Source: Cetorhinus maximus
Lineage: Eukaryota
Assembly: GCF_964194155.1 (NCBI RefSeq)
Contig: NC_135891.1
Location: forward strand, 14,012,001-14,076,000
Reading direction: 5' to 3'
DNA: 64,000 bases
The number at the start of each line of letters is the position of its first letter. The stretch's first letter is position 1. This document shows positions 2,776-61,585 of the stretch, piece by piece. The position numbers and the translations under genes are program-made. The notes beneath the pieces are model-generated. The model ran no database searches. It was not told the origin of the DNA and was given only the letters and a program-made list of their open reading frames with translations.

Positions 2776-4187
2776 CAAAACCAATAGTTTAGTCATTGTC
2801 AGACATGGCCCAGTTCCTGTTAATAAATTGAATCAGCCACGTGTGGTGGAATTTTCCATTCTGGAGACTAAGTCTGGTGGTGGGCAAGAAAGTCAGCATG
2901 ATACCCGCTTGGCGGCAGGGCGGGTGAACAAGCACAATCTTCCGCTTTTCAGATCAGTAATTTTGCATCAGTGAGGAGCTTGACAAAACTCGTGGCAGGG
3001 ACAGGCAGGAAGTCGCCTATCCTGCACTTGTCTCATTGGGTCAGAAGTCCTGGCGCCATTTCTAAAGGGCACCTGGGCAGACATTCGCTCACTGCAGTCC
3101 AGGAGCTCTGCATTTCTCCTACATAGTCCTTGCAGCCGCAGCTCACATTGGAGAAGCTCACAAATGTGAGCAACAACATCCTGGGACATAGAAGGGCACC
3201 TTTGGCATTGCCTTTCCCTCATCTCTAGGTAAGAGCACTGCCAGCGATACGCCCATGGCCGGGCCAATGCTCAATGTTTCAGTGGTCCATGTTCACCAGC
3301 CTTTTGACCTTTTAAAGGCTCTGCTGCCTCTTGCGGCTCAGGCCCTTGCTCCTCCTGGTCCTGTGCCAACCAGTGATGGGTCCTCCTTCTCTTCATCTGG
3401 ATAAGAGCCATTACCACGGCAGGATTGCCTGCAGCCTGTATCATCAACGCCTCAGTGGATGTGTGAACGAATTGAAGTGATACATTTAGTGAGCACGTCC
3501 TTTACAGGTTTACCTCCATCTCAAAACCAGCAGGCAAGTACTGGCCTCCATCTAGACATGGCATCTCCAACCCAAACCTTCCAGGGAAGGACATCCTGGA
3601 GGACCAGAGATTGATGTTCCTCCTGTTCATGATGTGCGTGGAGACATTGCTTTTTGACCAGGGTGATGAGAGCCATGTGCAAGAAGCCTCACGTGACACT
3701 TTTCCATTTGTCTCCACCACCCTCGAGACTCTACAGAGAGACCATTGCCTTGCAGTATAGAAAGGCTAACCGCATGGTCCCTTTGTAGCCATTCTGCATG
3801 ACCATTCACCCAGCAGGATGGAGGTTTGGAGTTGCAAGATGGCTGCCCTCCATCCATTGTGCCCCTTGCAGGCATTCCACCTCCCTTCATCTCTGCCTCT
3901 GACTGCGGTCAATGGCAAATGGCACAGAATGAACGGCAGCTCCACACCTTGCTGGGGTCTTGTTATTATGAGATCAATGAGTCGGCAAGAAACCTGCTGC
4001 TGTGAGGGCTTCACGATAAAGAGGGGAACACAAGTGAGCATCTTTGACATCCAGTTCCCTCATAATTATTATGGCATCCCTTTAGTCAGCCACTTGTGCT
4101 GACCTTGAACTCCACCCACCCGCAAAGACCCTCCTCCCACCTCGAGAGATCTGACTGACTGACTAACTGCGAGGTCAAGGTCAGATT

Positions 4188-7099: not shown

Positions 7100-8435
7100 C
7101 CATTCCAAGGTTGGTACCAATTAAAAAAAAACTGATAGATACATATTAAGGCTTCTGAATTGATGCTCCCTTTTCCCTTTCTCTGTTTCACTACTTTTTC
7201 CCACCATATAGCCTGCAACTCACCTAATACTGCTGTTGACTCATGTCAGACCACTTCCACTCTCCTTTGCTGATCATAGACAAGTTTGTATGCGTATACA
7301 CATACTTTTATAGCTTTTTAAAATACAACAAATTTTAGTGTCACTAAATAAGTATATAAATGCTTGTTGTTGTCTAAGATTGATTAGTTTATCGGTAACT
7401 GTGGTTTATAATGAAACAATTTATTTGGAGACTTGATGCCTTATTCCAAATCCATGAAGTGTATTTGTTTGAATGGACTATTGGATTTGTTAGTTCGTAC
7501 AAATGGGGAAACTCAATTTAAATATTGAGCCAGAATAGTTTCAGTGTAAATGCTGATCAATTCTTTCAGATAATCAGACTGATACTGAGGTACCTTTAAC
7601 ATCACCAAAACTGAGTTATTTTCATGCTGTAAAATATTTGCCAGCAATTCCCACTTGTCTTTTGTCCCTGAAGTACTATATCTGACCTAGGAGTGCATGG
7701 AAGTAACAATAGGTGACAACATTTGCAAAATATTTTGCTTCCCACCACTGATCCTTCCACCTGATGAGTACAACATATCAGGTACATTTTATTATTGAAC
7801 CATTCTTTGAATTGCTTTTAATGTTGCATATTTATACATTTATATTTTATAACGTACTTTTGGAAAAGTCTATGATGGTTTCTGGGCACATTTTCTCGAA
7901 TATGTGCAGGAATTACAGTCACACAGGAGCCAGTGTACATTGCCCGTTGATCTAAATTGGGTGTATAATTCACACTTACAGGCAGAAATGTGCACAGCAT
8001 TTTAGTAGATCAGCTGTTGAAACAAAGCTCACCATTCTGGAGGAACGTTGAATATCCCTGATAGTTAAGTATCTGCTCAACGACATTATTACCTTGATGA
8101 GATTAATTTTCTTGTATAAATAAGAGATTTGAGGATGCAAGCCCAATAATCTTAATGATGATAGAAACATTACACCCTAAATAAACCCTGTTTGCCAGGA
8201 GACGCTTTGTATATGCAAAGTGTAGACAGAAGATTCTTCAGGTGAGTAATTGCACAACCTTGTGTCACGCCTCAGTATATTCTGAATTTCAAACCAGTTT
8301 TTATATTTTAAAACTGACCACAAAAGGCTGTAAAAGATGGGCGCCCAAGGGCCACCTAACTTCTTTTGTGGATTGAAACCACTCCCCAGACTCAAGACGG
8401 AACAGAAGAATCATTCCAGACTGATTTTGAATCAA

Positions 8436-8696
8436 AACAAAAACAGAATTACCTGGAAAAACTCAGCAGGTCTGGCAGCATCGGCGGAGAAGAAATCAGT
8501 CAACATTTCGAGCTTTCATGGCCCTTCGGCAGAACTGAAGCATGCTTATGCTTCAGTTCTGCCGAAGGGCCATGAAGGCTCGAAACGTTGACTGATTTCT
8601 TCTCCGCCGATGCTGCCAGACCTGCTGAGTTTTTCCAGGTAATTCTGTTTTTGTTTTGGATTTCCAGCATCCGCAGTAGCTTTTAGCTTTTTGTTT
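8436..8696 (+). mobile_element. Penelope-like element remnant: inverted pseudo-LTR pair (fold-back)
   Basis: 111-bp arms 8433-8543 and 8548-8658 with a 4-nt loop; 14-bp direct repeat TGATTTTGAATCAA at 8422-8435 and 8697-8710; arms are homologous to the pLTR attached to the GIY-YIG fragment at 21765-22361. Confidence 0.85.
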
Positions 8697-8991
8697 TGAT
8701 TTTGAATCAATGCCTTTTCTTAAAACTAATTCAAAAAGATATTATCACTTGAGTGAGTCATTCAAATATGAAAGCACTGTCTGTCTCAAACTCTCAAGGT
8801 GTCAAATGGCGACACAAGTGATCGGAACCAATATATACACCACCCTTTCTTTGGAAAAAGGACTTTGAACTTCTGGAAGTCACATGACGAGGGAGCCATT
8901 TCGTTGTCTGCTTTTAAATCAACTAGAAGCAGAGAGTTCCAACAAAAGCCGTCGGATGGGCTACAAACCATCAAGCAGCCAAGATAATTAA

Positions 8992-18879: not shown

Positions 18880-18981
18880 TGTTCTGTTGAAGAGTCATGC
18901 AGACTCGAAACGTTAACTGTGCTCCTCTCCACAGATGCTGCCAGACCTGCTGAGTTTTTCCAGGTATTTTTGTTTTTATTT
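18880..18981 (+). mobile_element. Solo Penelope pseudo-LTR fragment
   Basis: GAAGAGTC..GACTCGAAACGTT..GATGCTGCCAGACCTGCTGAG; flanked by direct repeat AGGAAAAAGC (18870-79 and 18982-91). Confidence 0.85.
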
Positions 18982-21764: not shown

Positions 21765-22361
21765 GAAATAAAAAAACTCAGCAGGCCTGGCAGCAGTTGT
21801 GCAGAGAGTAACAGAGTTAATGTTTCGAGTCAAATATGACTCTTCTTCGGAACTGAAGGTAGGTAGAAATGTGATGGGTTTATGTTGTTGAAAGGGGGGA
21901 GGAGAAGGTAGAACTAAAGGGAAAGTCTGGGACAGGTTAGAAATTACAAAGATGTCCTGGAACAAAAGCAAAGGGAGTGGTAATGGTTGTAGTAAAGAAA
22001 CAAAGCATTAGTCCAGAGTGAGTGGTAATGGCAGAATAATGAACAGCTCTGTCTGAAAACAAAAACACAAAAACAACTTACAGACTGGTCCTTGGCTAAA
22101 ACAAAAGTATCAAAACGGAGGACAGAGTTTTTGGTCTGAAATTGTTGAACTCAATGTTGAGCCTAGAAGGCTGTCAACTGCTTAATTGGAAGATGAGGTG
22201 CTGTTCCTCAAGCTTGCGTTGAGCTTCACTGGAACACTGCAGCAGGCCGAGGATAGAAATATGAGCGTGAGAGCAAGATGATGAATTAAAATGGCGAGCA
22301 ACCGGAAGTTCAGGGTCACGCATGTGGACTGAGCAGAGGTGTTCCACAAAGCGGTCACCCA
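21765..22361 (-). mobile_element. Penelope-like element 3' part: GIY-YIG endonuclease C-terminus and pLTR
   Basis: Minus ORF GDRFVEHLCSV..PELPVARHFN..HAHISILGL..QRKLEEQHLIFQL (RxxEH / PVAxHF / E..I..L motifs of PLE endonucleases), followed by the pLTR. Confidence 0.9.
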
Positions 22362-23714
22362 TGTGTAAGAGTGTGGTGGGGGTGAGGGGTAGCAGTGGGC
22401 AGACACATTCAACACAAACTTGGGTACAAGATCTTCACAATTTTGTGTCCATTCTGGATGGAAAGTTGGGAGCACCTTGGTGCATGAGTTTGTAATAAGC
22501 TATTCTCCACCAAATGCTAATGCTCTGGCACTAAAGAGCAAAAGCTGCCCAAACATATAAATGGAGCCTCTATCTGTAAAGCAAGTCTGTAAAGCAATCA
22601 ACTTTACAAAGAGGTCACCTTTCTAGAAGAAAATCACCACCTGCGTGGAGATACCACAATCGGTGAGAGCTACCGCTAAATAGGAGGTCCTCAGTTTCTC
22701 TGGACTAAAGAAGGAGAAAAGTGATTAAGGTATTTGCTCCTGATCACTGTTGAATGAACTCTGTTGGAAAAGTGTTGCGAGTGTTGAATGAGCGGACAAA
22801 TAAAGCTTGGTTGTGATTCCCTCATGATTAAGATTTACTCTTTCAACTCAGACATTAAGAACAGGCACTGAAGGATAAAAGTGGGAGCTGTACAAGAGCC
22901 CACCTCCACAAGAAAGGAGGGAGCGCACATGAAAGGATAAGGCAGGGGAAGAAAAAAGGGCTGCGCACTCCCCTTCCACCCGACCATGCTAGCCAGAGAG
23001 ACTGATAACAGAAGTGGCTGGAGCTAATGATGGTGACATAATTCTGCATCACATCTTCATTTGCTAACCCACAAACAGGAAATCCTCTGGACACTTAAAG
23101 ATGATGCATTCCACCACACTGCTTGCCACCGCTTGTTCCAGCAGTTAGCCAAGCAACCAAAATTGTTCCAAAAAATAGTTTTAGCAGAACTTTGCATTTT
23201 AATGCACTACTGGAATTCACTTTGATGATAAAAACAGTAAACATTCTTTGTATGTACAAATGGGCGCTGCTCCTCTGCACCACTCAAAGACATTTTTTTA
23301 TTTTAGCTGAAGCCTGTTTTCTTCAACCAATACTTCATCTTTCTTTGTCATTTGCTGTCACTCACAGCCCATCTCTGTTCCCTTTGCACGGTTTCATTGT
23401 GACTCACGAGAGATAATGGGATGTATCTGTTCAGTAATAGAATGTGTTCCCAAGAACACTTAACGTCAAGCAAAGGAAACGCAAAAGAACAGAATAGGTT
23501 TTCTGTTTCAAAGAGAAGTTTGAGTTCCTTAAAAAAAAATGTTTCTATCAGTTATGTGACCTGTCTGACTATCAGTCACAGTGTTCTGACAACGTAGTCC
23601 GAAGATTATCATCTTGAATTTTTGGAAAAAATGACCTGCGTCATCGTCTTGAAAATTGTTCATTTTTAGGCAATTGTAATGATTAAACTGGCGCGTAAAA
23701 TCCAGACTAATGCT

Positions 23715-28946: not shown

Positions 28947-31145
28947 TTAAGGATACCCCCTCCATTCTGTTGTGTGGCACTACCACCGTGCTAAATGGGA
29001 TACGTTTCTAACAGATCTAGCAACTCAAGACTGGGCATCCATGAGGCGCTGTGGGCCATCAGCAGCAGCAGAATTGTACTTGAACACAATCTGTAACCTC
29101 ATGGCCCGGCATATCCCCCACTCTACCATTACCATCAAGCCAGGGGATCAACACTGGTTCAATGAAGAGTGCAGGAGGGCATGCCAGGAGCAGCACCAGG
29201 CATACCTAAAAATGAGGTGAAGCCTGGTGAAGCTGTAACACAGGACTACTTGCATGCCAAACAGCATAAGCAGCAAGTGATAGGCAGAGCTAAGCAATCC
29301 CACAACCAACGGATCAGATCTAAGCTCAGCAGTCCTGCCACATCTAGTTGTGAATGGTGGTGGACAATTAAACAACTCTCTGGAGGAGGTGGCTCCACAA
29401 ATATCCCCATCCTCAATGATGGGGAAGACAGCACATCAATGCAAAAGGTAAGGCTGAAGCATTTGCTACAATCTTCAGCCAGAAGTGCTGAGTGGATGAT
29501 CCTTCTCGGCCTCTGTCTGAGGCCCCAGCATCACAGATGCCAGTCTTCAGCCAATTCAATTCAACTCCACGTGATATCAAGAAACGGCTGAAGGCACTGG
29601 ATACTGCAAAGGCTATGGGCCCTGACAGCATTCCGGCAATAGTACTGAAGACTTGTGCCCCAGAACTTGTCACACCCCTAGCCAAGCTGTTCCAATACAG
29701 CTACAATGCTGACATCTACCCAGCTATGTGGAAAATTACCCAGGTATGTCCTGTACACAAAAAGCAGGACAAATCCAACCTGGCCAATTACCGCCCCATC
29801 AGTCTACTCTCGATCATCAGTAAAGTAATGGAAGGGGTCATTAGCAGTGCTATCAAGCGGCATTTACTTAGCAATAACCTGCTCACTGATGCCCAGTTTG
29901 GGTTCCGCCAGGGCCACTCAGCTCCTGACCTTGTTACAGCCTTGGTTCAAGCATGGCCAAAAGAGCTGAACTCCCGAGGTGAGGTGAGAGTGACTGCCCT
30001 TGACATCTAGGCAGCATTTGACCTAACGTGGCATCAAGGAGCCCTAGCAAAACTGGAGTCAATGGGAATCAGGGGGAAAACTCTCCGCTGGTTGGAGTCA
30101 TACCTAGCACAAAGGAAGATGGTTGTGGTTGTTGGAGGTCAGTCATCTTAGCTCCAGGACATCACTGCAGGAGTTCCTCAGGGTAGTGTCCTAGGCCCAA
30201 CCATCTTCAACTGCTTCATCAATGACCTTCCTTCCATCATATGGTCAGAAGCAGGGATGTTCGCTGATGATTGCACAATGTTCAGCACCATTCACGACTC
30301 CTCAGATACTGAAGCAGTCCATGTCCAAATGCAGCAAGACCTGAACAATATCCAGGCTTGGGCTGACAATTGGCAAGTAACATTTGCAACACACAAGTGT
30401 CAAGCAATGACCATCTCCAAGAAGAGAGAATCCAACCATCGTCCCTTGATGTTCAATGGCATTAACATCACTGAATCCCCTACTATGAACATCCTGGGGG
30501 TTACCTTTGACCAGAAACTGAACTGAACTATCCATATAAATACTGTGGCTACAAGAGCAGGTCAGAGGCTAGGAATCGTGTGATGGGTAACTCACCTCCT
30601 GACTCCCCAAAGTCTGTCCAACATCTACAAGGCACAAGTCAGGAGTGTGATGGAATACTCCCCACTTGCCTGGATGAGTGCAGCTCCTACAACACTCAAA
30701 AAGCTTGACACCATCTAAGACAAAGCAGCCCACTTGATTGGCACCACATTCACAAACATTCACTCCCTCCACCCCCGACGCACAGTAGCAGCAGTGTGTA
30801 CCATCTACAAGATGCACTGCAGGAATTCACCAAGGCTCCTTAGACAGCACCTTCCAAACCATCGACCACTGCCACCTAGAAGAACAAGGCCAGCAGATAT
30901 GTGATAACACCACCACATGGAATTTCCCCTCCAAGCCACTCACCATCATGACTTGGAAATATATCGCCGTTCCTTCACTGTCGCTGGGTCAAAATCCTGG
31001 AACTCCCTTCTTAACTGCAATGTGGATGTACCTACACCACATGGACTGCAGCGGTTCAAGAAGGCAGCTCACCACCACCTTCTCATTGGCAGTAAATGCT
31101 GGCCCAGCCAGCGAAGCCCACATCCCATGAATGAATAAAAAAAAA
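28947..31145 (+). mobile_element. 5'-truncated L2/Crack-like (CR1 group) LINE, ORF2 RT, with stops
   Basis: KAMGPDSIP, NYRPISLLS, QFGFR, GVPQGSVLGP, FADD, YKAQVRSVMEYS; AATG/poly-A tail. Exact clade not resolved by eye. Confidence 0.93.
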
Positions 31146-31151
31146 GACCCA

Positions 31152-44815: not shown

Positions 44816-46139
44816 ACTGCTACATTCCAGAGGTTTGGAGGACAGAGGTCTGAGGACCTGACTAGCTTTAATGTGAGAGATGGACGTGAAGAAGGAGACT
44901 GGCAGAATCCTTCCATTATAAATTTCAGGGATGTCATGTAGACGTATTGGATAAATATTGTAAGCAATGATTTCCCACCATGTCTCCTGGTGATGGTGTG
45001 GATATAATTACAATTTTAGGAATGAATAAAATACCACAGGCACATCTCTTAACTTCAGTGGGGTGAGAAATTGCTGCACTGGACTGAAAATGGTAATCGT
45101 ACAACGGCTAGATAGGACTGCCCATCCTCTACTACTCACTTTATGCCCCCACCAAGGTTGAATGTTCTGTCCTGCGTATCAAAGTGCATGGTAAGTGATG
45201 GAACAACCAGGGAGTGACATGATGTGAAATTATTTTCTGACTGGGGTAAACTAGAGTTTGCTGAGATGCGCCCAGAGAATTAGAAAAATTAACCTGGGGC
45301 AAACAGGAAGCTGTCGTGACTTCTCTTCTGTATCTGAAAAGAAAAATCCCGTGGGTGTCACCAAGGTACCTGTCAGCAAGACAGGGAACAAAACTGTGAC
45401 CACGGCCATCAACTAGCCATCTTGTGTCCAAACCACATAAGAATGCCACGAAGTGATTCACTTAAATCGATGACGATCCCTAGTATTTTGGGATTATCAA
45501 TTCGTTTCTTGTGATTTCAAGTTAAAGTTCCAGTCGTTTTGAGTTTCCTCACTTAAATCAATGTCCTCAAGGTCCTTCATCCAAAATTTTAACAAAGTTA
45601 CCAGATTTCTTTATTTATTTCAGTGTAGCCAATGCCAATGTTTTCCTGCTCTTTATTATAATAGCAAATTGAAAAGGAGATGATTCAACTTAGCTGGAAT
45701 TTGACAGGTTCTTTGACAATTAGATACATATAGCAACTGATATTGCAGGTCAATTTGAATCATTAGAATTGATAGAGGACCACATAGAATGTCACGTAAT
45801 GAGGTGGGGCCTGGTAGGATACCAAGTAATTTTGGATGCTAAATCAGAGCAAAATTCCTAACCCTCCATAGGACATATAGCCTGATTTTAATGCCAGGTA
45901 GAATTTGGACATGTGGGTTGTGAGGTGATTTGGTATCTCAGGCTTCATAAATGAGGCCTGAGCTACTTTAACTCTTGAGTCTCATTTAAAACCTGCCAGC
46001 AGACTTCACAACCAGAACAGACTGAAAATCGATGGCAACTTGAGTGGTAGGTTTAGCTTTGGAGGGGGGTGGGGGCTGTCTTATGTTTTGCTTCAGTAAG
46101 CCAGCTGGTAAAAGATAAAACTGGAGCCAATCCTTACAC

Positions 46140-47535
46140 GGTAGGGGGGGGAGCAGGGGTGAGGGGCGAGAAGGGGGAGGGGTGAGGGGGGAGGAGGGGG
46201 AGGGTGAGGAGGGAGGAATGGGGAGGGGTGAGGAGGGAGAAAGGGAAAGGGAGAAGGGTGCGGGGTGAGGAGTGGGGTGAGGGGTGAGGAGTGGGGAGAG
46301 GAGGAGAAGGGAAGGGGGAGAAGGGGAGGGGTGAGGGGGAAGAGGGGGAGAAGGGGGCTGGGGAAGGGGCAGGGGTGAGGGGGAGAACAGTGAGGGGGAG
46401 AAGGGGAGGGGGGGAGAGGTGTAGAAAGGGGAGGGGCGAGGGGGAGAAGGTGGAGGTGTGAGGGGGAGAAGGGGGAGGGGCGAAGGGGAGGGGGAGAAGG
46501 GGAGGAGTGAGGAGGAGAAGGGGAGGGGTGGGGTGAAGAAGGGGGTGAAGGGGAAGGGGTGAGGGGGAGGAGGGGGAGGGGTGGGAGTGTAGAAGGGGGA
46601 GGGGTGAGGGGGAGGAGGGGTGAATGGGAGGGGGAGGAGGGGGAGGGGAGGGAGAGGGGTGAGGAGGGGAGGGGGAGGGGTGAGGGGGGAGAAGGGGGAG
46701 GGGAGGAAGGGAGAAGGCGGAGGGGTGAGGAGGGGGGAAAGAGGGGGTGAGGAGGGGGGAAGAGAGAGGTGAGGGGGAGGAGGGGGAGGGGTGGGGATGC
46801 ATGGGAGGAGGAGGAGGGGGAGTGGTGGGGTTGCAGGGGAAGGGGGTAGGGGTGAGGGGGAGATGGGGGTGTGTGGGGGTGGAGGGGGAGGCGGGGGAGG
46901 ATGAGGAAGGGAGAAGGGGAGGGGTGAGGAGGGGGGAATGGGGAGAGGTGAGGAGGGAGAAAGGAAGGGGAGAAGGGTGAGGGGTGAGGGGGGAGAAGCG
47001 GAGGGGTGAGGGGGCGAGGGGGAGAAGTGGTTGGGGTGAGGGGGGAGAAGGGGAGGTGGAGGCGTGTCGAAGGGGGAGGGGTGAGGAGGGAGAAAGGGGA
47101 GGGGTGTGGGGGAGAAGGGGGAGGGATGAGGGGGAGAAGGGGGAGAGGGAGAATGGGGAGGGGTGAGGGGGGAGAAGGGGGAGTGGTGATGGGGGAGAAG
47201 GGGGAGAGGTTGGGGGGTGAGGGGAGAGGGGAGAGGTCAGGGGAGGGAGGGGAGAAGGGGGAGAGATCGGGGGAGGGAGGGGGAAGGGGGAGGGAGTAGG
47301 GGAGAGGTTAGGGGAGGGGTGAGGGCATGGGGGAGGGCGAGTGGGGAGTGGGGGAGTGGGGGAGTGGGAGGAGGAAGCTGGGGGGGTGGGGAAGGTGAGG
47401 GTTGATGGGGAGGGGGAATAGGGGTGTTGGAGAGGGAAGGGGTTGGGGGAGAGGAGAGGGGAAGGGGAGTGGAGAGAGGGGTTGTTGGTCAGGAATGGGG
47501 GTGGGTGGGCGATGGGAGAGGGGAAGGCGGGAGGG
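46140..47535 (+). repeat. About 1.3-1.4 kb G/A-rich low-complexity tract
   Basis: Degenerate GGGGTGAGGGGGAGAA-like units; almost no C on the plus strand. Confidence 0.95.
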
Positions 47536-48106
47536 GCTACCTCCTTTTTCCTTGCTCCTTGGACCTACAAAGTAGGAAACAAAATGTTTTAGTTTGGGCC
47601 TCTTCAGGCCCTGGCTCCTCCTCACTGCTTCCTCCATCTGGTGGGAAAGCCACAGAGATTTCCTCGCTTGGGGTCTCCAATTAAAATTGCAATCAAGCCC
47701 CGACAAGTCTATGTAAAGTTGGACCTGGCCAGCTTTGTATGCGCATCCTTGCTGCCTACTCAGTTGGGGCAGGTTAAAGTTCAGTTGGGAAAGTTCCTGG
47801 ATGCTTTCCAAAAGCCAAGTGACCTTTGCGATTTTAACTGCCTGATTGCTCATTTTCCACATTACAAAGATTGAACATTCCTTAACATAATATATACTTT
47901 AATATGTTGCCAGGACTGAATATGATACATAATGCACTCAATGCCATTAAACTAAATAGACAGAAAACTATATGCTTACGCCCGCTAAATGCTGGCAGCG
48001 AGTAAGGCTTTGCCTCCTTTCCCACTCCCAACACCATTTCCCCAGAAACAACCCCGAGAAAAAAGCCAAAATTCAGTCAAAAAGTACTGAGGACAGCAAA
48101 TACATG

Positions 48107-50961: not shown

Positions 50962-51648
50962 ATATCCATCTCCAGCAAACATTCAATGGCATTACCATCG
51001 ATGAATCCCCCACTATCAAAATCCTGGAGGTTACCTTTGACCAGAAAGTGAACTGCACTAGCCACATAAATACTGTGGCTACAAGAGCAGGTCAGAGGCT
51101 AGGAATCCTGTGGCAATTAACACAGGATTCCTAGCCTCCTGACTCCCCAAAGCCTGTCCACCATCTACAAGGCACAGAAAGATTGTGATGGAATACTCTC
51201 TGCTTGCCTAGATGAGTGCAGCAAGAGCCCGCTTGATTGGCTCCCCATCCACAAACATTCTTTCCCTTCACTACTGATGCACAGTGGCAGCAGTGTGTTA
51301 CATTTACACGATGCACTGCAGGAACTCACCAAGCCTCTTTAGACGGAACCTTCCAAACCCACAGCCACTACCACCTAGAAGGGTAAGGGCTGCAGACACA
51401 TGGGAGTACCACCACCTGGAAGTTCCCCTCCAAACCACTCATCGCCCTGACGTGGAAATATGTTCACTGTTGCTGGGTCAAAATCCTGGAACTCCCTCCC
51501 TAACAGCACTGTGGGTGTACCTACACCACATGGACTGCAGTGGTTCAAGAAGGCAGCTCACCACCACCTTCTCAAGGGCAATTAGGGATGGGCAATAAAT
51601 GCTGGCCCACATAAGTGATGCCCACATCCCATGAACGAATATAAAAAA
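50962..51648 (+). mobile_element. L2/Crack-like LINE 3' fragment
   Basis: Homologous to 30410-31145. Confidence 0.9.
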
Positions 51649-57400: not shown

Positions 57401-58442
57401 GATACTGGAAAACAGCTGGAATCGGACCTATGTTGGACCCTTCAGAAGAGGTGAAAATGCAACAAAAATAAAAGTTATAGTGTACATTATCAATAATAAC
57501 ATGTTTAATGTGGCAATCTCATGGTTCAGAAACTTTCAAAGTCTTTGTGTGAAACCTTTGATCAAGGCCAATGTATATAATTCACTAACAGTATAAGAAT
57601 CCTCAATGTACTTCATTGTGTTTTCTTTAAATTGGTTGTGTAAGAAAGCTAATAGCACTACTCATTTTTCCCCTAGTTTTAGATTTTTACTGCTTTCATC
57701 TTGTAACTGCTTTAGTTATCAGCATGAATGCTTTATGTTATTTGCCAAAGTTAATCATCTCCAGCTGATCTCATTTATTTTCCTGTTGGTGGTTTTGGTG
57801 CATTCTTAGGTAATTGTAGGGGGGGGTTGGGTAGTAAAGGGTTAAAGTAGAGGCTCCTCCAAATGACCTTAAAGGAAACATTTTCTATTATCATTGTTCA
57901 GCGTACAGTGAATGCTGGTCTGGATTTTATGCCCCCTCCCCCTCACCCCCCCACACCGGGCACGTTTCTGGCAGGGGTGGTGGGGAGGGGGCAGGTACGT
58001 TTGAGGGACGACAAGCCCACCACCTTCCCACCCACCTCCGAGCTGTCCCCCATAATACAGTAGGTGGGCAGGTGCCAAAATTGGCAGCCTGTCTGCCATT
58101 TTTACATAAACAAGTAACCCTCAATTGATCCTGTTACCGGGCCAACTGACCCAAATATTGCACTGCCCGTGCCCTAATACAGCTGGAATGGGCAGGCGGG
58201 TGGGAATGGGCAGGCTGTATTTTAAACACAAGGGTTTAAAAGGCGGGAAGTAAGGGGGGATGTCCTTTGTGGGGTGCACTGTGCGCATCGGGGAGCACCC
58301 CACCCCCCACAAGATGTTACCCCGTACTTTGTTACTCTCTGCCTGGCCTCCCACACCCATCCCTGCCCCCTCCCTCCCTAGGCTGCCTAAACCCTCCCCA
58401 CTCTAAAAGCAAGGGATTTACCTGGCTCTAGCATCTATTGAA

Positions 58443-59685
58443 GGGCGGAACCATCCCAGGTTGGCGTTAAGTTTGGGGAAAAAGGACATTTTACCCGCCA
58501 GCCCCAATGGTGTCTTTTCACACCGTACAGCCCACCCCCATTAAATATGCAGCCACAGGAAACATGCCAGCTCACTGGCGGGCATCCTCTGAATCGCCTG
58601 CAAGCCGTTACCTCACCGTTTCCTCACTCCGGACACCATATCTAAACTGCGGCCGCCCACACAGTTCTCAATGTTTGAAGCCCAGGACTGTTCCAGCAAA
58701 GACATGGCCCTGAAAACCAAGGAGAGTTCAGTGACCTGTCATTTTAATGCCTTTTGGAGGCCCATCATGATGTCCTCCCACCCCCGTTCTGGCCGCAGGA
58801 GGTCCAGTGATCTCACCGCTCTGGCTAGGGAGCCGGTGGCAGTGGTGGTCAATGCCAGTGCTGCACAGAAGGGGTTGGCCATCCAGTGCAGAAAGAGGAT
58901 GAATGATCTCATCTGTGCTGCCAGGGTAAGACAACCATCTCATCACTCTAAACCCACACACTCACATTCACTGGCATCTCAAGGGACATCACCACTCACT
59001 GTCTCACACACACCCTCATATCTGCATCTGGCCTCATCCCCTGTGGAGACTGCTTCCTCAGCCCTCGACATCCTGAGGCCACTTGCACAGATCAACATGT
59101 GTCCCCACACGTGCCCTGGGATACCTCCTTTCCCCAGTACAGCCCTCGCCCTCCAGCCTCTTCCTTTGCCTGAGACTCTTCTCCCCCTTCCCCAGCAAGC
59201 CCTAGCCCTGTAGCCATTGAAAAGCCACCCCCGCATTATGGCTGGTCTGGTAGATAGAAACCTGTCAGTGAGCCCCCTATAAAAGTGATGTGGTGCTGCT
59301 TGGAAAGCCTGGCACTGATGACCACGAGTGCTGTCTGAAGCAAGGTCGGCAAACCAACCTCAAAATCCTGAGTGAAGTGCAGCTCACCAGACGCACATCG
59401 TTTATGTACAGTTGTGAAATACGTTGACATGCAGTCATGATGATGTGCCCGGATGATCCAGCATGGGGGGATGATTCCAGCAGCCAGCGATTATAATTAT
59501 GTGCAGATATATTAAAAATGACATTCCCAACGTCTGAGGTCGGGAAACCCGGCCCGCCATTGACAGGTGAAGCGGACGATCGCAAACTGGTTTCACGCAT
59601 GAAACCAATTTTTGGCCTACCCACCATATTGTCTGCTCATGTCCACAATGATGTCCGACGCCAACAGGGACAGAATATTCTGACC
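58443..59685 (+). mobile_element. Harbinger deletion derivative retaining Myb/SANT exon 1
   Basis: Ends GGGCGGAA ... AATATTCTGACC; MALKTK (ATG 58704) ... VAVVVNASAAQK..IQCRKRMNDL, then donor AGG|GTAAG at 58925. Confidence 0.8.
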
Positions 59686-59737
59686 AAAGTTCTTCCTTGG
59701 CCTGTTTGCAGTCCCAGCAGTCCCAGCATTCCCAGCG

Positions 59738-60561
59738 GTCCATGTCCAAATACAGCAAGACCTGGACAATAACCAGGCTTTGGCTGACAAGTGGCAAGTA
59801 ACATTCATGCTACACAAGTACCAGGCAATGACGATCTCCAACAATAGAGAATCTAACCATCGCCCCTTGACATTCAATGGCATTACCATCGCTGAATCCG
59901 CCACGATCAACATTGACCAGAAACTGAACTGGACTAGCCATATAAATACAGTGGCTACAAGAGCAGGTCAGAGGCTAGGAATCGTGTGACGAGTAACTCA
60001 CTTCCTGACTCCCCAAAGCCTGTCCACCATCACAAGGCACAAGTCAGGAGTGTGATGGAATACTCCCCACTTGCCTGGGTGAGTGTAGCTCCCTCAACAC
60101 TGAAGAAACTTGACACCATCCAGGACAAAGCAGCCACTTGATTGGCACCCCATCCACAAACATTCACTTCCTCAACCACTAATGAACAGTAGCAGCAGTG
60201 TGTACCATCTACAAGATGCACTGCAGAAACTCACCAAGGCACCTTAGGCAGCACCTTTCAAACCCACAGGTGCTACCATCTAGAAGGACAAGGGCAGCAG
60301 ATACATGGGAACACCATCACCCGGAAGTTCCTCTCCAAGCCTCCCAACGGCCTGACTAGGAAATATATCACCATTGCTTCTGTTGCTGGGCCAAAACCCT
60401 GGAACTCCCTCCCTAACAGCACTGTGGGTGTACCTACACCGCGGGAACTGCAGCGGTTCAAGAAGGTAGCTCACCACCACCTTCTCAAGGGCAATTAGGG
60501 ATGGGCAATAAATGCTGGCCTAGCCAGCGACGCCCACATCCTGTTGATGAATAATAAAAAA
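59738..60561 (+). mobile_element. 5'-truncated L2/Crack-like LINE
   Basis: ADKWQVTF..NHRPLTFNG..DQKLNW; poly-A tail. Confidence 0.93.
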
Positions 60562-60796
60562 GGCGGCCACAACTGGGGTTCTATTGTTGCTGAGATAGGT
60601 CGTGCTACTGGCCAATCAGATTTGGCGGCAGTGCTGGAGGGCAAGACTTCCTCCCATGAGGGACAGAAGTCCCACTGTCATCCTGTTTAGCTAGCTGGCA
60701 CTGTGTTATGGTTGTGGGGCAGGCTGTTTTTAGGTTCTTCGGCTGCTGTCTGACTCTTGCAATGGGGGGAACATGAAATGGACGTGAAATCCAACT

Positions 60797-60844
60797 ATAA
60801 AAACAAAAAGCTAAAAGCTACTGCGGATGCTGGAAATCCAAAAC
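60797..60844 (-). mobile_element. Penelope pLTR 3' tail
   Basis: About 45 nt identical to the reverse complement of 8653-8697 (GTTTTGGATTTCCAGCATCCGCAGTAGCTTTTAGCTTTTTGTTTT). Confidence 0.9.
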
Positions 60845-61255
60845 CTGTTGCTGCTGTATAGTAGACCATCCGTCGTATGTGGCAGAAGGTGTAAAATTTC
60901 TTTGGTTCTGTTTTTGATATATTGGTCCAGTTTGATTAGTGTATTCTGTGAGACCTCTGCGAGGATCAGGTGGAAATATATCCTGGGTATCATATGTGTT
61001 TTGAGGATTTCAATCCTCTGGATAGGCCGAAGAGCTGCCTTCTTCAGATTCTCTATCCACATACCGATTCTGGGTCCCCATTGCTCCTCAGCTACCCCTG
61101 CCCATGGGTCGATTCTGGCACCCAGGTATTTCTCCGTCTCTCCTGGTGGTATGTAAGAGATCAGACCTCCTTTCAGCTGCCAGTTCGGCCTAGTGTTGTA
61201 CAGGAACGTCTTCTGTTTGTGGATGAAGTGGAAGCCTTTGGTCTTCCCGGCATTC
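60845..61255 (-). mobile_element. R2-clade non-LTR retrotransposon fragment (RT motif 7/thumb), open frame
   Basis: ETEKYLGARIDPW..LRPIQRIEILKT..IPR..LDQYIK..KEILHL.P.TTDGLLYSS matches the vertebrate R2 pattern EKYLGxxxDPW..PLKPxQK..L..IPRL..LD..IR..K.WLHLP..D..LYS. Confidence 0.85.
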
Positions 61256-61263
61256 ATCCAACT

Positions 61264-61585
61264 GCTATGTTTCAAGGTGGCTATGTTTGTTTAGAGATTG
61301 CCATGTTTGCTTATTGGTGGCCGTGCTTGATTATGGCTGTGTTTGTTTAGAAGTGCTTTTTTATGATGGTCATGCTTAGAATGGCCATCTTTGTTTAAAG
61401 ACAGCCATTCTTGTTTTACAGTAGTCATGCTTATTGAGGTAATGTTTGTTTAGTAGTGGCCATGTTTGTTTTACAGTGGCCATGTTTGTTTAGTAGTGGC
61501 CATGTTTGTTTTACATTGGCCATGTTTGTTTTACAGTAGCCATGTTTGTTTAGAGATGGCCATGGTCATTTGGGGAGGCTATGTT
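61264..61585. repeat. Minisatellite, 20-21 bp unit TGGCCATGTTTGTTT(T)A(G/C)..
   Basis: About 15 degenerate copies, best conserved at 61440-61565. Confidence 0.9.

Follow-up and report, generated by a model that had tools for sequence, protein, structure and literature searches.

We describe a chimeric insertion, real, young and present as a single copy, in a 64-kb stretch of the Cetorhinus maximus genome (64,000 nucleotides, hereafter the window). The unit spans 459 bp (60797-61255, minus strand) between perfect 8-bp direct repeats and joins, in the same sense, about 411 nt of an R2 retrotransposon to 48 nt of a Penelope-like element; the microhomology at the join is 0-1 nt, base 60844 being assignable to either part. 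Its layout is that of U6/L1 chimeras, with a foreign 5' part, the 3' end of the element, the same sense and one target-site duplication (TSD) around both. The unit behaves as a chimeric retrocopy of the U6/L1 type, with a Penelope element as its maker, and is neither an R2 element nor an autonomous Penelope. Taken whole, it differs from an R2 element in having no 28S target site and no endonuclease region or 3'UTR of its own (the R2 homology ends in the thumb). No Penelope RT-endonuclease ORF is found in the unit, which holds the R2 frame only and is hence a non-autonomous product. The features are listed in Table 1.

Table 1. Parts of the chimeric insertion and related Penelope copies in the window
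Feature	Position	Strand	Description
Target-site duplication, 5' end of insertion	61256..61263	-	exact 8-bp repeat; R2 homology begins at its edge
Internal piece of R2 covering the thumb and the end of the RT domain	60845..61255	-	stop-free; without R2 3' end; assigned to shark lineage A
Penelope pLTR tail plus 2-4 nt	60797..60844	-	47/48 identical to 8653-8700 (+)
Target-site duplication, 3' (priming) end	60789..60796	-	exact 8-bp repeat
Reference Penelope copy	8436..8696	+	inverted pLTR arm 8436-8545; forward arm from 8546; tail from ~8656-58 to 8696
Tail-less Penelope pLTR copy	18880..18981	+	ends at inner start site (equivalent of 8656); 10-bp TSD, 18870-79 and 18982-91
Older Penelope copy	21772..22362	-	combines this pLTR type with a GIY-YIG endonuclease ORF end

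The repeat ATCCAACT has exactly two copies in the window, one abutting the Penelope tail and the other the start of the R2 homology. It is exactly 8 bp long, and is the sole direct repeat of at least 5 nt shared by the two end regions of the unit. Two copies of some 8-mer are ordinary in 64 kb (3.1 expected), but the chance of an 8-mer match within 30 positions of the R2 boundary is about 5e-4; when generous slack was allowed, an 8-nt repeat was found in 268 of 20000 random position pairs. Because a single TSD encloses both parts, we read the unit as one insertion primed at the Penelope 3' end. The initial annotation had described a 459-bp unit between direct repeats, with about 137 stop-free codons ending in LLYSSNR, a tail identical over about 45 nt to a Penelope pLTR end, and no rDNA nearby, and on these points it was correct. 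The frame counts 138 codons (61257 to 60844, minus strand), the repeat is exact on both sides, and the first 45 nt of the tail are without mismatch. No rRNA was detected, as no Rfam family reached its gathering score anywhere in the window, and 28S target motifs occur at chance level only, both at the insertion site and in the window at large.

A further argument of that annotation was not upheld. Removal of the unit was said to restore the right terminal inverted repeat (TIR) of a host MITE next to GCT, matching the GCT of its left flank (57914-16), as independent support for a single insertion. In an alignment with one gap, 13 of 20 positions agree between the proposed right TIR and the left end at 57917, a score reached by 158 of 127022 positions, and position 59685 gives a better inverted match to the same left end (14/20). 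The GCT flank match depends on that alignment gap. For neither MITE end did the window yield a relative that outscores shuffled sequence, and the gain in minisatellite fit obtained by joining both flanks was equalled by 83 of 817 random GCT-ending 20-mers. We rejected the restoration as evidence, the right TIR not being specific; since the MITE argument adds no support, the single-event reading is carried by the TSD.

The surroundings of the insertion are rich in repeats. Positions 57917-59685 hold an element with inverted ends and a decayed frame (58593-59213) without a Pfam match, which we take to be of Harbinger/PIF type, its frame presumably Myb/SANT-like; 59466-59680 is 76% like 63775-63560. 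Nested just left of the host sequence of the insertion, 59734-60562 is 83% like 30313-31146 and 77% like 50979-51648, and is presumably the 3' part of a CR1-like LINE. A minisatellite with a 20-nt period (61268-61564) begins right after the 5' TSD. Farther away, 46001-48000 is a strongly skewed, G-rich stretch of low complexity (GC 0.62, GC skew 0.74).

The R2 frame is stop-free throughout, and its first codon is completed by 1-2 bases of the TSD, which is within chance. Its best matches among solved structures are R2 proteins, namely R2Tg (E 3.6e-26, aligned to the last residue) and BoMo R2 (E 2.4e-6); a Pfam search of the fragment returned no family, and no further R2 sequence was found in the window. 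A first protein search gave nine matches, eight of them to named shark gene models (43-66% identical, seven at 58-66%) and one unnamed. The nearest protein found, P0142, is identical to the fragment at 45 of 50 residues and continues with NGGLG, and relatives of the fragment carry GGL/GLG past the junction point. The continuation expected at the outset, DGGLG, therefore holds for its GGLG, the first residue being N in this nearest relative, which is a trivial difference.

In a tree of the RT region (35 rows, omitting P0010, P0013, P0095 and unnamed rows; the fragment fills 32% of the columns), the fragment falls within a shark clade with support 99/98, as sister to P0012 (100/99). A tree of the fragment region (24 rows) recovers the shark clade at 100/99 and the pairing with P0012 at 94/84. 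Both trees are without a non-R2 outgroup and without Hero/NeSL sequences. Given this column coverage and the lack of a non-R2 outgroup, R2 membership rests also on Table S2 of PMC13188248 (published papers are cited here and below for their available portions). The N-terminus of P0012 is identical to that of the 28S-flanked R2-1_CPu (PMC13188248), to which the fragment is 52% identical. A 22-residue run of the fragment (P0001 34-55) is, by eye, identical to the 28S-flanked R2-1_SAc (PMC13188248). Another clade member, P0005, has zinc finger(s) and a Myb motif by motif search, in a region beyond that covered by the fragment, with a C2H2 match below the cut-off, and its zinc finger-Myb region is nearly identical, by eye, to R2-1_STig (PMC13188248). 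Intact 28S-flanked R2s are known in sharks, and in Table S2 28S sequence stands on both sides in 12 of the 13 chondrichthyan rows examined (PMC13188248).

Judging from these relationships, the parent of the 411-nt piece is a true lineage-A R2 with rDNA-targeted members, not Hero/NeSL. A Hero/NeSL/Utopia origin was rejected because the named sequences nearest to the fragment are R2s that have Myb and include 28S-flanked members, and because GGL/GLG continues at the junction; a wholly non-site-specific shark family as parent was dropped in view of the 28S-flanked members in Table S2 (PMC13188248). The R2 identity proposed by the initial annotation is upheld, and the case it had named against itself, a grouping with Hero/NeSL-type elements that carry this tail natively, did not come true.

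The R2 piece is young and recently left an intact ORF, on the basis of its open frame. In simulations under our own mutation model, with 3000 runs per divergence level, the frame was still free of stops in 1121 runs at 2%, in 214 at 5% and in 16 at 10%. One of 26 conserved columns is altered in the fragment, likely by a CpG transition. Neighbouring CR1-like copies are 77-83% alike. A recently expressed R2 had been proposed for this lineage: the youth of the piece stands, but expression follows only if the template was RNA.

The window contains three related Penelope pLTR copies outside the chimera (Table 1), and the 22-nt tail motif occurs twice in the window against none in 100 shuffles. The reference copy carries a 14-bp TSD (8422-35 and 8697-8710) and a palindrome of 96% identity over 226 nt. 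Taken with its one-sided tail, the near-perfect palindrome and the TSD make 8422-8710 a young textbook Penelope insertion. In e-value mode, Rfam gave only hairpin-driven microRNA matches below the cut-off in 8300-8800; a hammerhead is not among these 20 weak matches, and a degenerate core is visible by eye only. The older copy is 74% identical over 87 nt to 8551-8634. Homologues of its ORF end (62-73% identical) carry RT or weak GIY-YIG matches below the Pfam cut-off, and its own peptide has no Pfam match. Through this related copy, the source of the tail is probably a Penelope-like element whose pLTR is attached to the end of a GIY-YIG ORF. The inverted pLTR and optional tail, both Penelope traits, are seen in the reference and tail-less copies.

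The tail of a Penelope is the stretch between two RT start sites (PMC11167929), and both sites are legible in the window. The inner site is marked by the equivalent of 8655-57, where both the tail-less copy and the inverted arm at 8436 stop; the outer one is marked by 8696-8700, where tailed copies stop. The Penelope part of the chimera begins at 8653-54 and thus comprises the tail plus 2-4 nt, placing the junction 2-4 nt past the inner start site. By a rough estimate the chance of such proximity is a few percent, for one event. Nothing else in the unit is as informative as this placement of the junction at the inner RT start site, a point absent from the initial annotation, though it is one event.

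Between the R2 end and the Penelope sequence that precedes the tail there is no homology, the same score being reached by 221 of 349 R2 63-mers. The parent R2 continues with Asn past the junction, as seen in P0142, and microhomology is therefore at most 1 nt (base 60844). RNA folding at the junction revealed no unusual structure (z between -0.8 and 0.2 against shuffles). A homology-guided switch was rejected, similarity not being above background, and so was splicing as the origin of the AG|GT-looking join, since the Penelope side has no acceptor AG there.

We put at about even the probability that one Penelope target-primed reverse transcription event, with a jump onto R2 RNA, made the whole unit. 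A GIY-YIG endonuclease would have cut both strands 8 bp apart, as the TSD suggests. With a normal Penelope RNA as template, the Penelope RT would then have begun synthesis at the outer start site and reverse-transcribed nothing but the tail, consistent with a 3' end that is the natural Penelope end. It would have stopped 2-4 nt past the inner start site, perhaps because a second subunit was bound there or because the RNA ended, and jumped without homology onto a broken R2 RNA, of which about 411 nt may have been copied before the cDNA was joined to the upstream nick. The product would be a dead, promoterless chimera without function. Several findings agree with such a jump. One exact TSD encloses both parts and touches both boundaries; the TSDs of two other Penelope copies in the window measure 14 and 10 bp, and 8 bp is the length left by a Penelope event in trans described earlier (PMC3846280). 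The 3' end is that of Penelope and not an R2 3'UTR, no 28S target motif rises above chance, and both parts are in sense orientation, yet the latter is a 50% coincidence. Against this, template jumping by a Penelope RT is no more than a proposal, made for other captures, in the available text of PMC3846280. In the initial annotation, the Penelope RT primed on its own 3' end and then switched to an R2 transcript: the Penelope tail and the single TSD support an insertion primed at that end, but the switch is the likeliest of several routes and is unproven.

Read-through, or 5' transduction, would yield the same structure if an earlier Penelope had inserted into an R2 at this codon and the R2-plus-tail transcript had been retrocopied in trans and 5'-truncated. 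Trans-mobilisation of pLTR-adjacent sequence by Penelope has been published (PMC3846280), and R2-like gene models do lie on large scaffolds (8 of the 10 listed in C. punctatum), but two events are required. Moreover, this route presupposes recognition of an RNA that has the tail alone, whereas the protein from Anolis depended on about 150 nt that extend beyond the tail on either side; and Penelope prefers AT-rich targets, a composition that the R2 end at the junction does not show (PMC11167929). In vitro, that protein required RNA from about +20 to +172 of the ORF, well beyond the tail, which disfavours tail-only RNA as a substrate and agrees better with an intact Penelope RNA as first template, with the proviso that this is a lizard element from another species (PMC11167929). 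We consider read-through distinctly unlikely. We judge in the same way a DNA-templated filler, for which a host polymerase would have lengthened a very short cDNA of Penelope during 5'-end joining, with genomic R2 (rDNA or dispersed) as template. Templated filler occurs at retrotransposon 5' junctions, although 411 nt from an unlinked locus would be long for it. As R2 has no introns, RNA and DNA templates are indistinguishable here, and sharks hold many genomic R2 pieces; the presence of R2-like gene models on many large shark scaffolds means that DNA or read-through templates were available. Against the filler stand a microhomology of at most 1 nt at the join and the absence of R2 sequence elsewhere in the window.

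The blunt, homology-free join would also suit a ligation at the RNA level, whereby a cut Penelope RNA and a fragment of R2 RNA were joined by ligation, as by RtcB for U6/L1, and the chimera was copied in one pass. L1 provides a precedent (PMC6789731), and RNA-seq read ends coincide with the Penelope start sites (PMC11167929). Such a route is nevertheless highly unlikely: it demands matching RNA end chemistry, and the product RNA would be without Penelope sequence upstream of the tail. More doubtful still is a reaction driven by the R2 protein, with an off-target nick, priming on Penelope RNA and a jump to its own RNA. R2 RT does jump between templates in vitro, but R2 insertions usually leave no TSD of this kind. 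Non-specific R2 families exist in flatworms (PMC5035012) and apparently dispersed R2 copies in sharks, but the 3' end of the unit is the natural Penelope end, there is no 28S-like site at the insertion, and R2 proteins select their own 3'UTR (PMC13580325). The least probable account, and a barely credible one, is that two separate insertions abut or that the assembly joined unrelated sequences. The region is repeat-rich and the slack-tolerant control above gives such a repeat in 268 of 20000 random pairs, but the repeat lies flush against both element boundaries, self-insertion is impossible for an internal piece of R2 that lacks the 3' end, and the window sequence contains no N.

R2 sequence outside rDNA is not peculiar to this locus. 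Counting from the first protein search and the best 120 of 575 matches of a second, 8 of 10 listed R2-like gene models of C. punctatum (bamboo shark) lie on scaffolds of 0.53-6.4 Mb, each of different length, and the other two on contigs under 5 kb; the two listed for S. torazame lie on 255 and 487 kb. These R2-like sequences (P0002, P0003, P0005, P0007-P0011, P0013 and P0095) are found on many different large shark scaffolds and are close relatives of a 28S-flanked zebra-shark R2; in P0095 the gene model is fused with class-C receptor domains. R2 pieces on large scaffolds seem common in sharks, and the pattern suggests a burst of dispersed copies, with flanking rDNA remnants possible. The available portions of PMC13188248 and PMC13580325 make no mention of dispersed shark R2. 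A side observation concerns the turtle protein P0014, an R2 protein with three zinc fingers that is encoded on a 156-Mb chromosome and named as a phosphodiesterase isoform; here a host gene model may have absorbed an R2.

The single row of the 13 without 28S flank, R2-1_CCar of the white shark, offers a lead (PMC13188248). Compared by eye, the first 400 nt of this record, which do not show the join, look like the end of the Penelope ORF and the body of the pLTR at 21945-22160, with 34 of 42 positions matching in one stretch. Penelope-like sequence stands upstream of R2 in this case. An 11-nt motif of the window matches R2-1_CCar, and also one unrelated mollusc row (Table S2, PMC13188248). This lead is suggestive only, because a random 700-nt flank in the window touches a Penelope copy at 3051 of 63300 positions. 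The tail motif has no match within the first 400 characters of each cell of Table S2 (PMC13188248). In the same table, 28S makes up only about 115 nt of the 'upstream 28S' of R2-1_SCa, and the sequence before it does not resemble the 28S of other rows.

It is conceivable, though unlikely, that shark Penelope RT regularly jumps at the inner start site onto cellular RNAs including R2; tail-only insertions would then be a class of Penelope-made retrocopies accounting for part of the scattered non-rDNA R2, and R2-1_CCar a second case. If foreign sense-strand RNA pieces proved common 5' of tail-only insertions, Penelope would be a source of retrocopies in cartilaginous fishes and a route for site-specific R2 sequence out of rDNA, and conclusions on R2 target specificity drawn from where copies lie in a genome would call for caution. 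Should the shark case prove unique, it is a curiosity without function. The join on the inner RT start site bears in addition on how Penelopes finish their insertion and leave tails and inverted arms.

A literature search, with most subscription journals outside it, found no description of a Penelope-R2 or Penelope template-switch chimera. The mechanism first proposed remains the likeliest but is unproven, and it is less new than had been claimed: the retrocopying of foreign RNAs by Penelopes fits the unit, but Penelope copying of foreign sequence in trans is already published (PMC3846280). That work describes the Pen3a-NRPS locus of Adineta vaga, where Penelope mobilised foreign DNA in trans, the TSD measures 8 bp and the empty site was verified; the shark unit is alike in both the use of Penelope machinery and the TSD length (PMC3846280). 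The rotifer cargo, however, is framed by whole pLTRs and keeps its introns, whereas the shark unit has a 48-nt tail only, on the 3' side alone, and its cargo is an internal piece of another retrotransposon in a vertebrate host (PMC3846280).

Chimeric retrogenes of L1 are known as U6/L1, Alu/L1 and mRNA/L1, and share with the shark unit a foreign RNA copy at the 5' side, a truncated element at the 3' side, the same sense and one TSD (PMC11838501, PMC6789731). The shark unit differs in its driver, a GIY-YIG Penelope and not an APE-LINE, and in a join at the Penelope-specific inner RT start site. Magnaporthe LINE chimeras are reportedly comparable insertions with a foreign 5' part.

The Poseidon/Penelope PAc of Anolis resembles the window Penelope in having two RT start sites split by the tail, tailed and tail-less copies and an inverted pLTR arm; the tail measures about 40-45 nt in the window and 30-40 in PAc, for which the available text of PMC11167929 describes no foreign cargo. 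The source family of the 411-nt piece corresponds to the chondrichthyan lineage-A R2 (R2-1_SAc, R2-1_SCa, R2-1_STig and R2-1_CPu; PMC13188248), from which the unit differs by being without 28S flank, zinc fingers, Myb, endonuclease and 3'UTR and by not being self-inserted. R2NS-1_SMed and R2NS-1_CSi are likewise R2 sequence outside rDNA, but they belong to clades D and C and insert by their own 3' end, whereas the shark piece is without a 3' end and its family has 28S-flanked members (PMC5035012). The shark unit differs from these known cases in its tail-only Penelope part, its R2 cargo and its vertebrate host.
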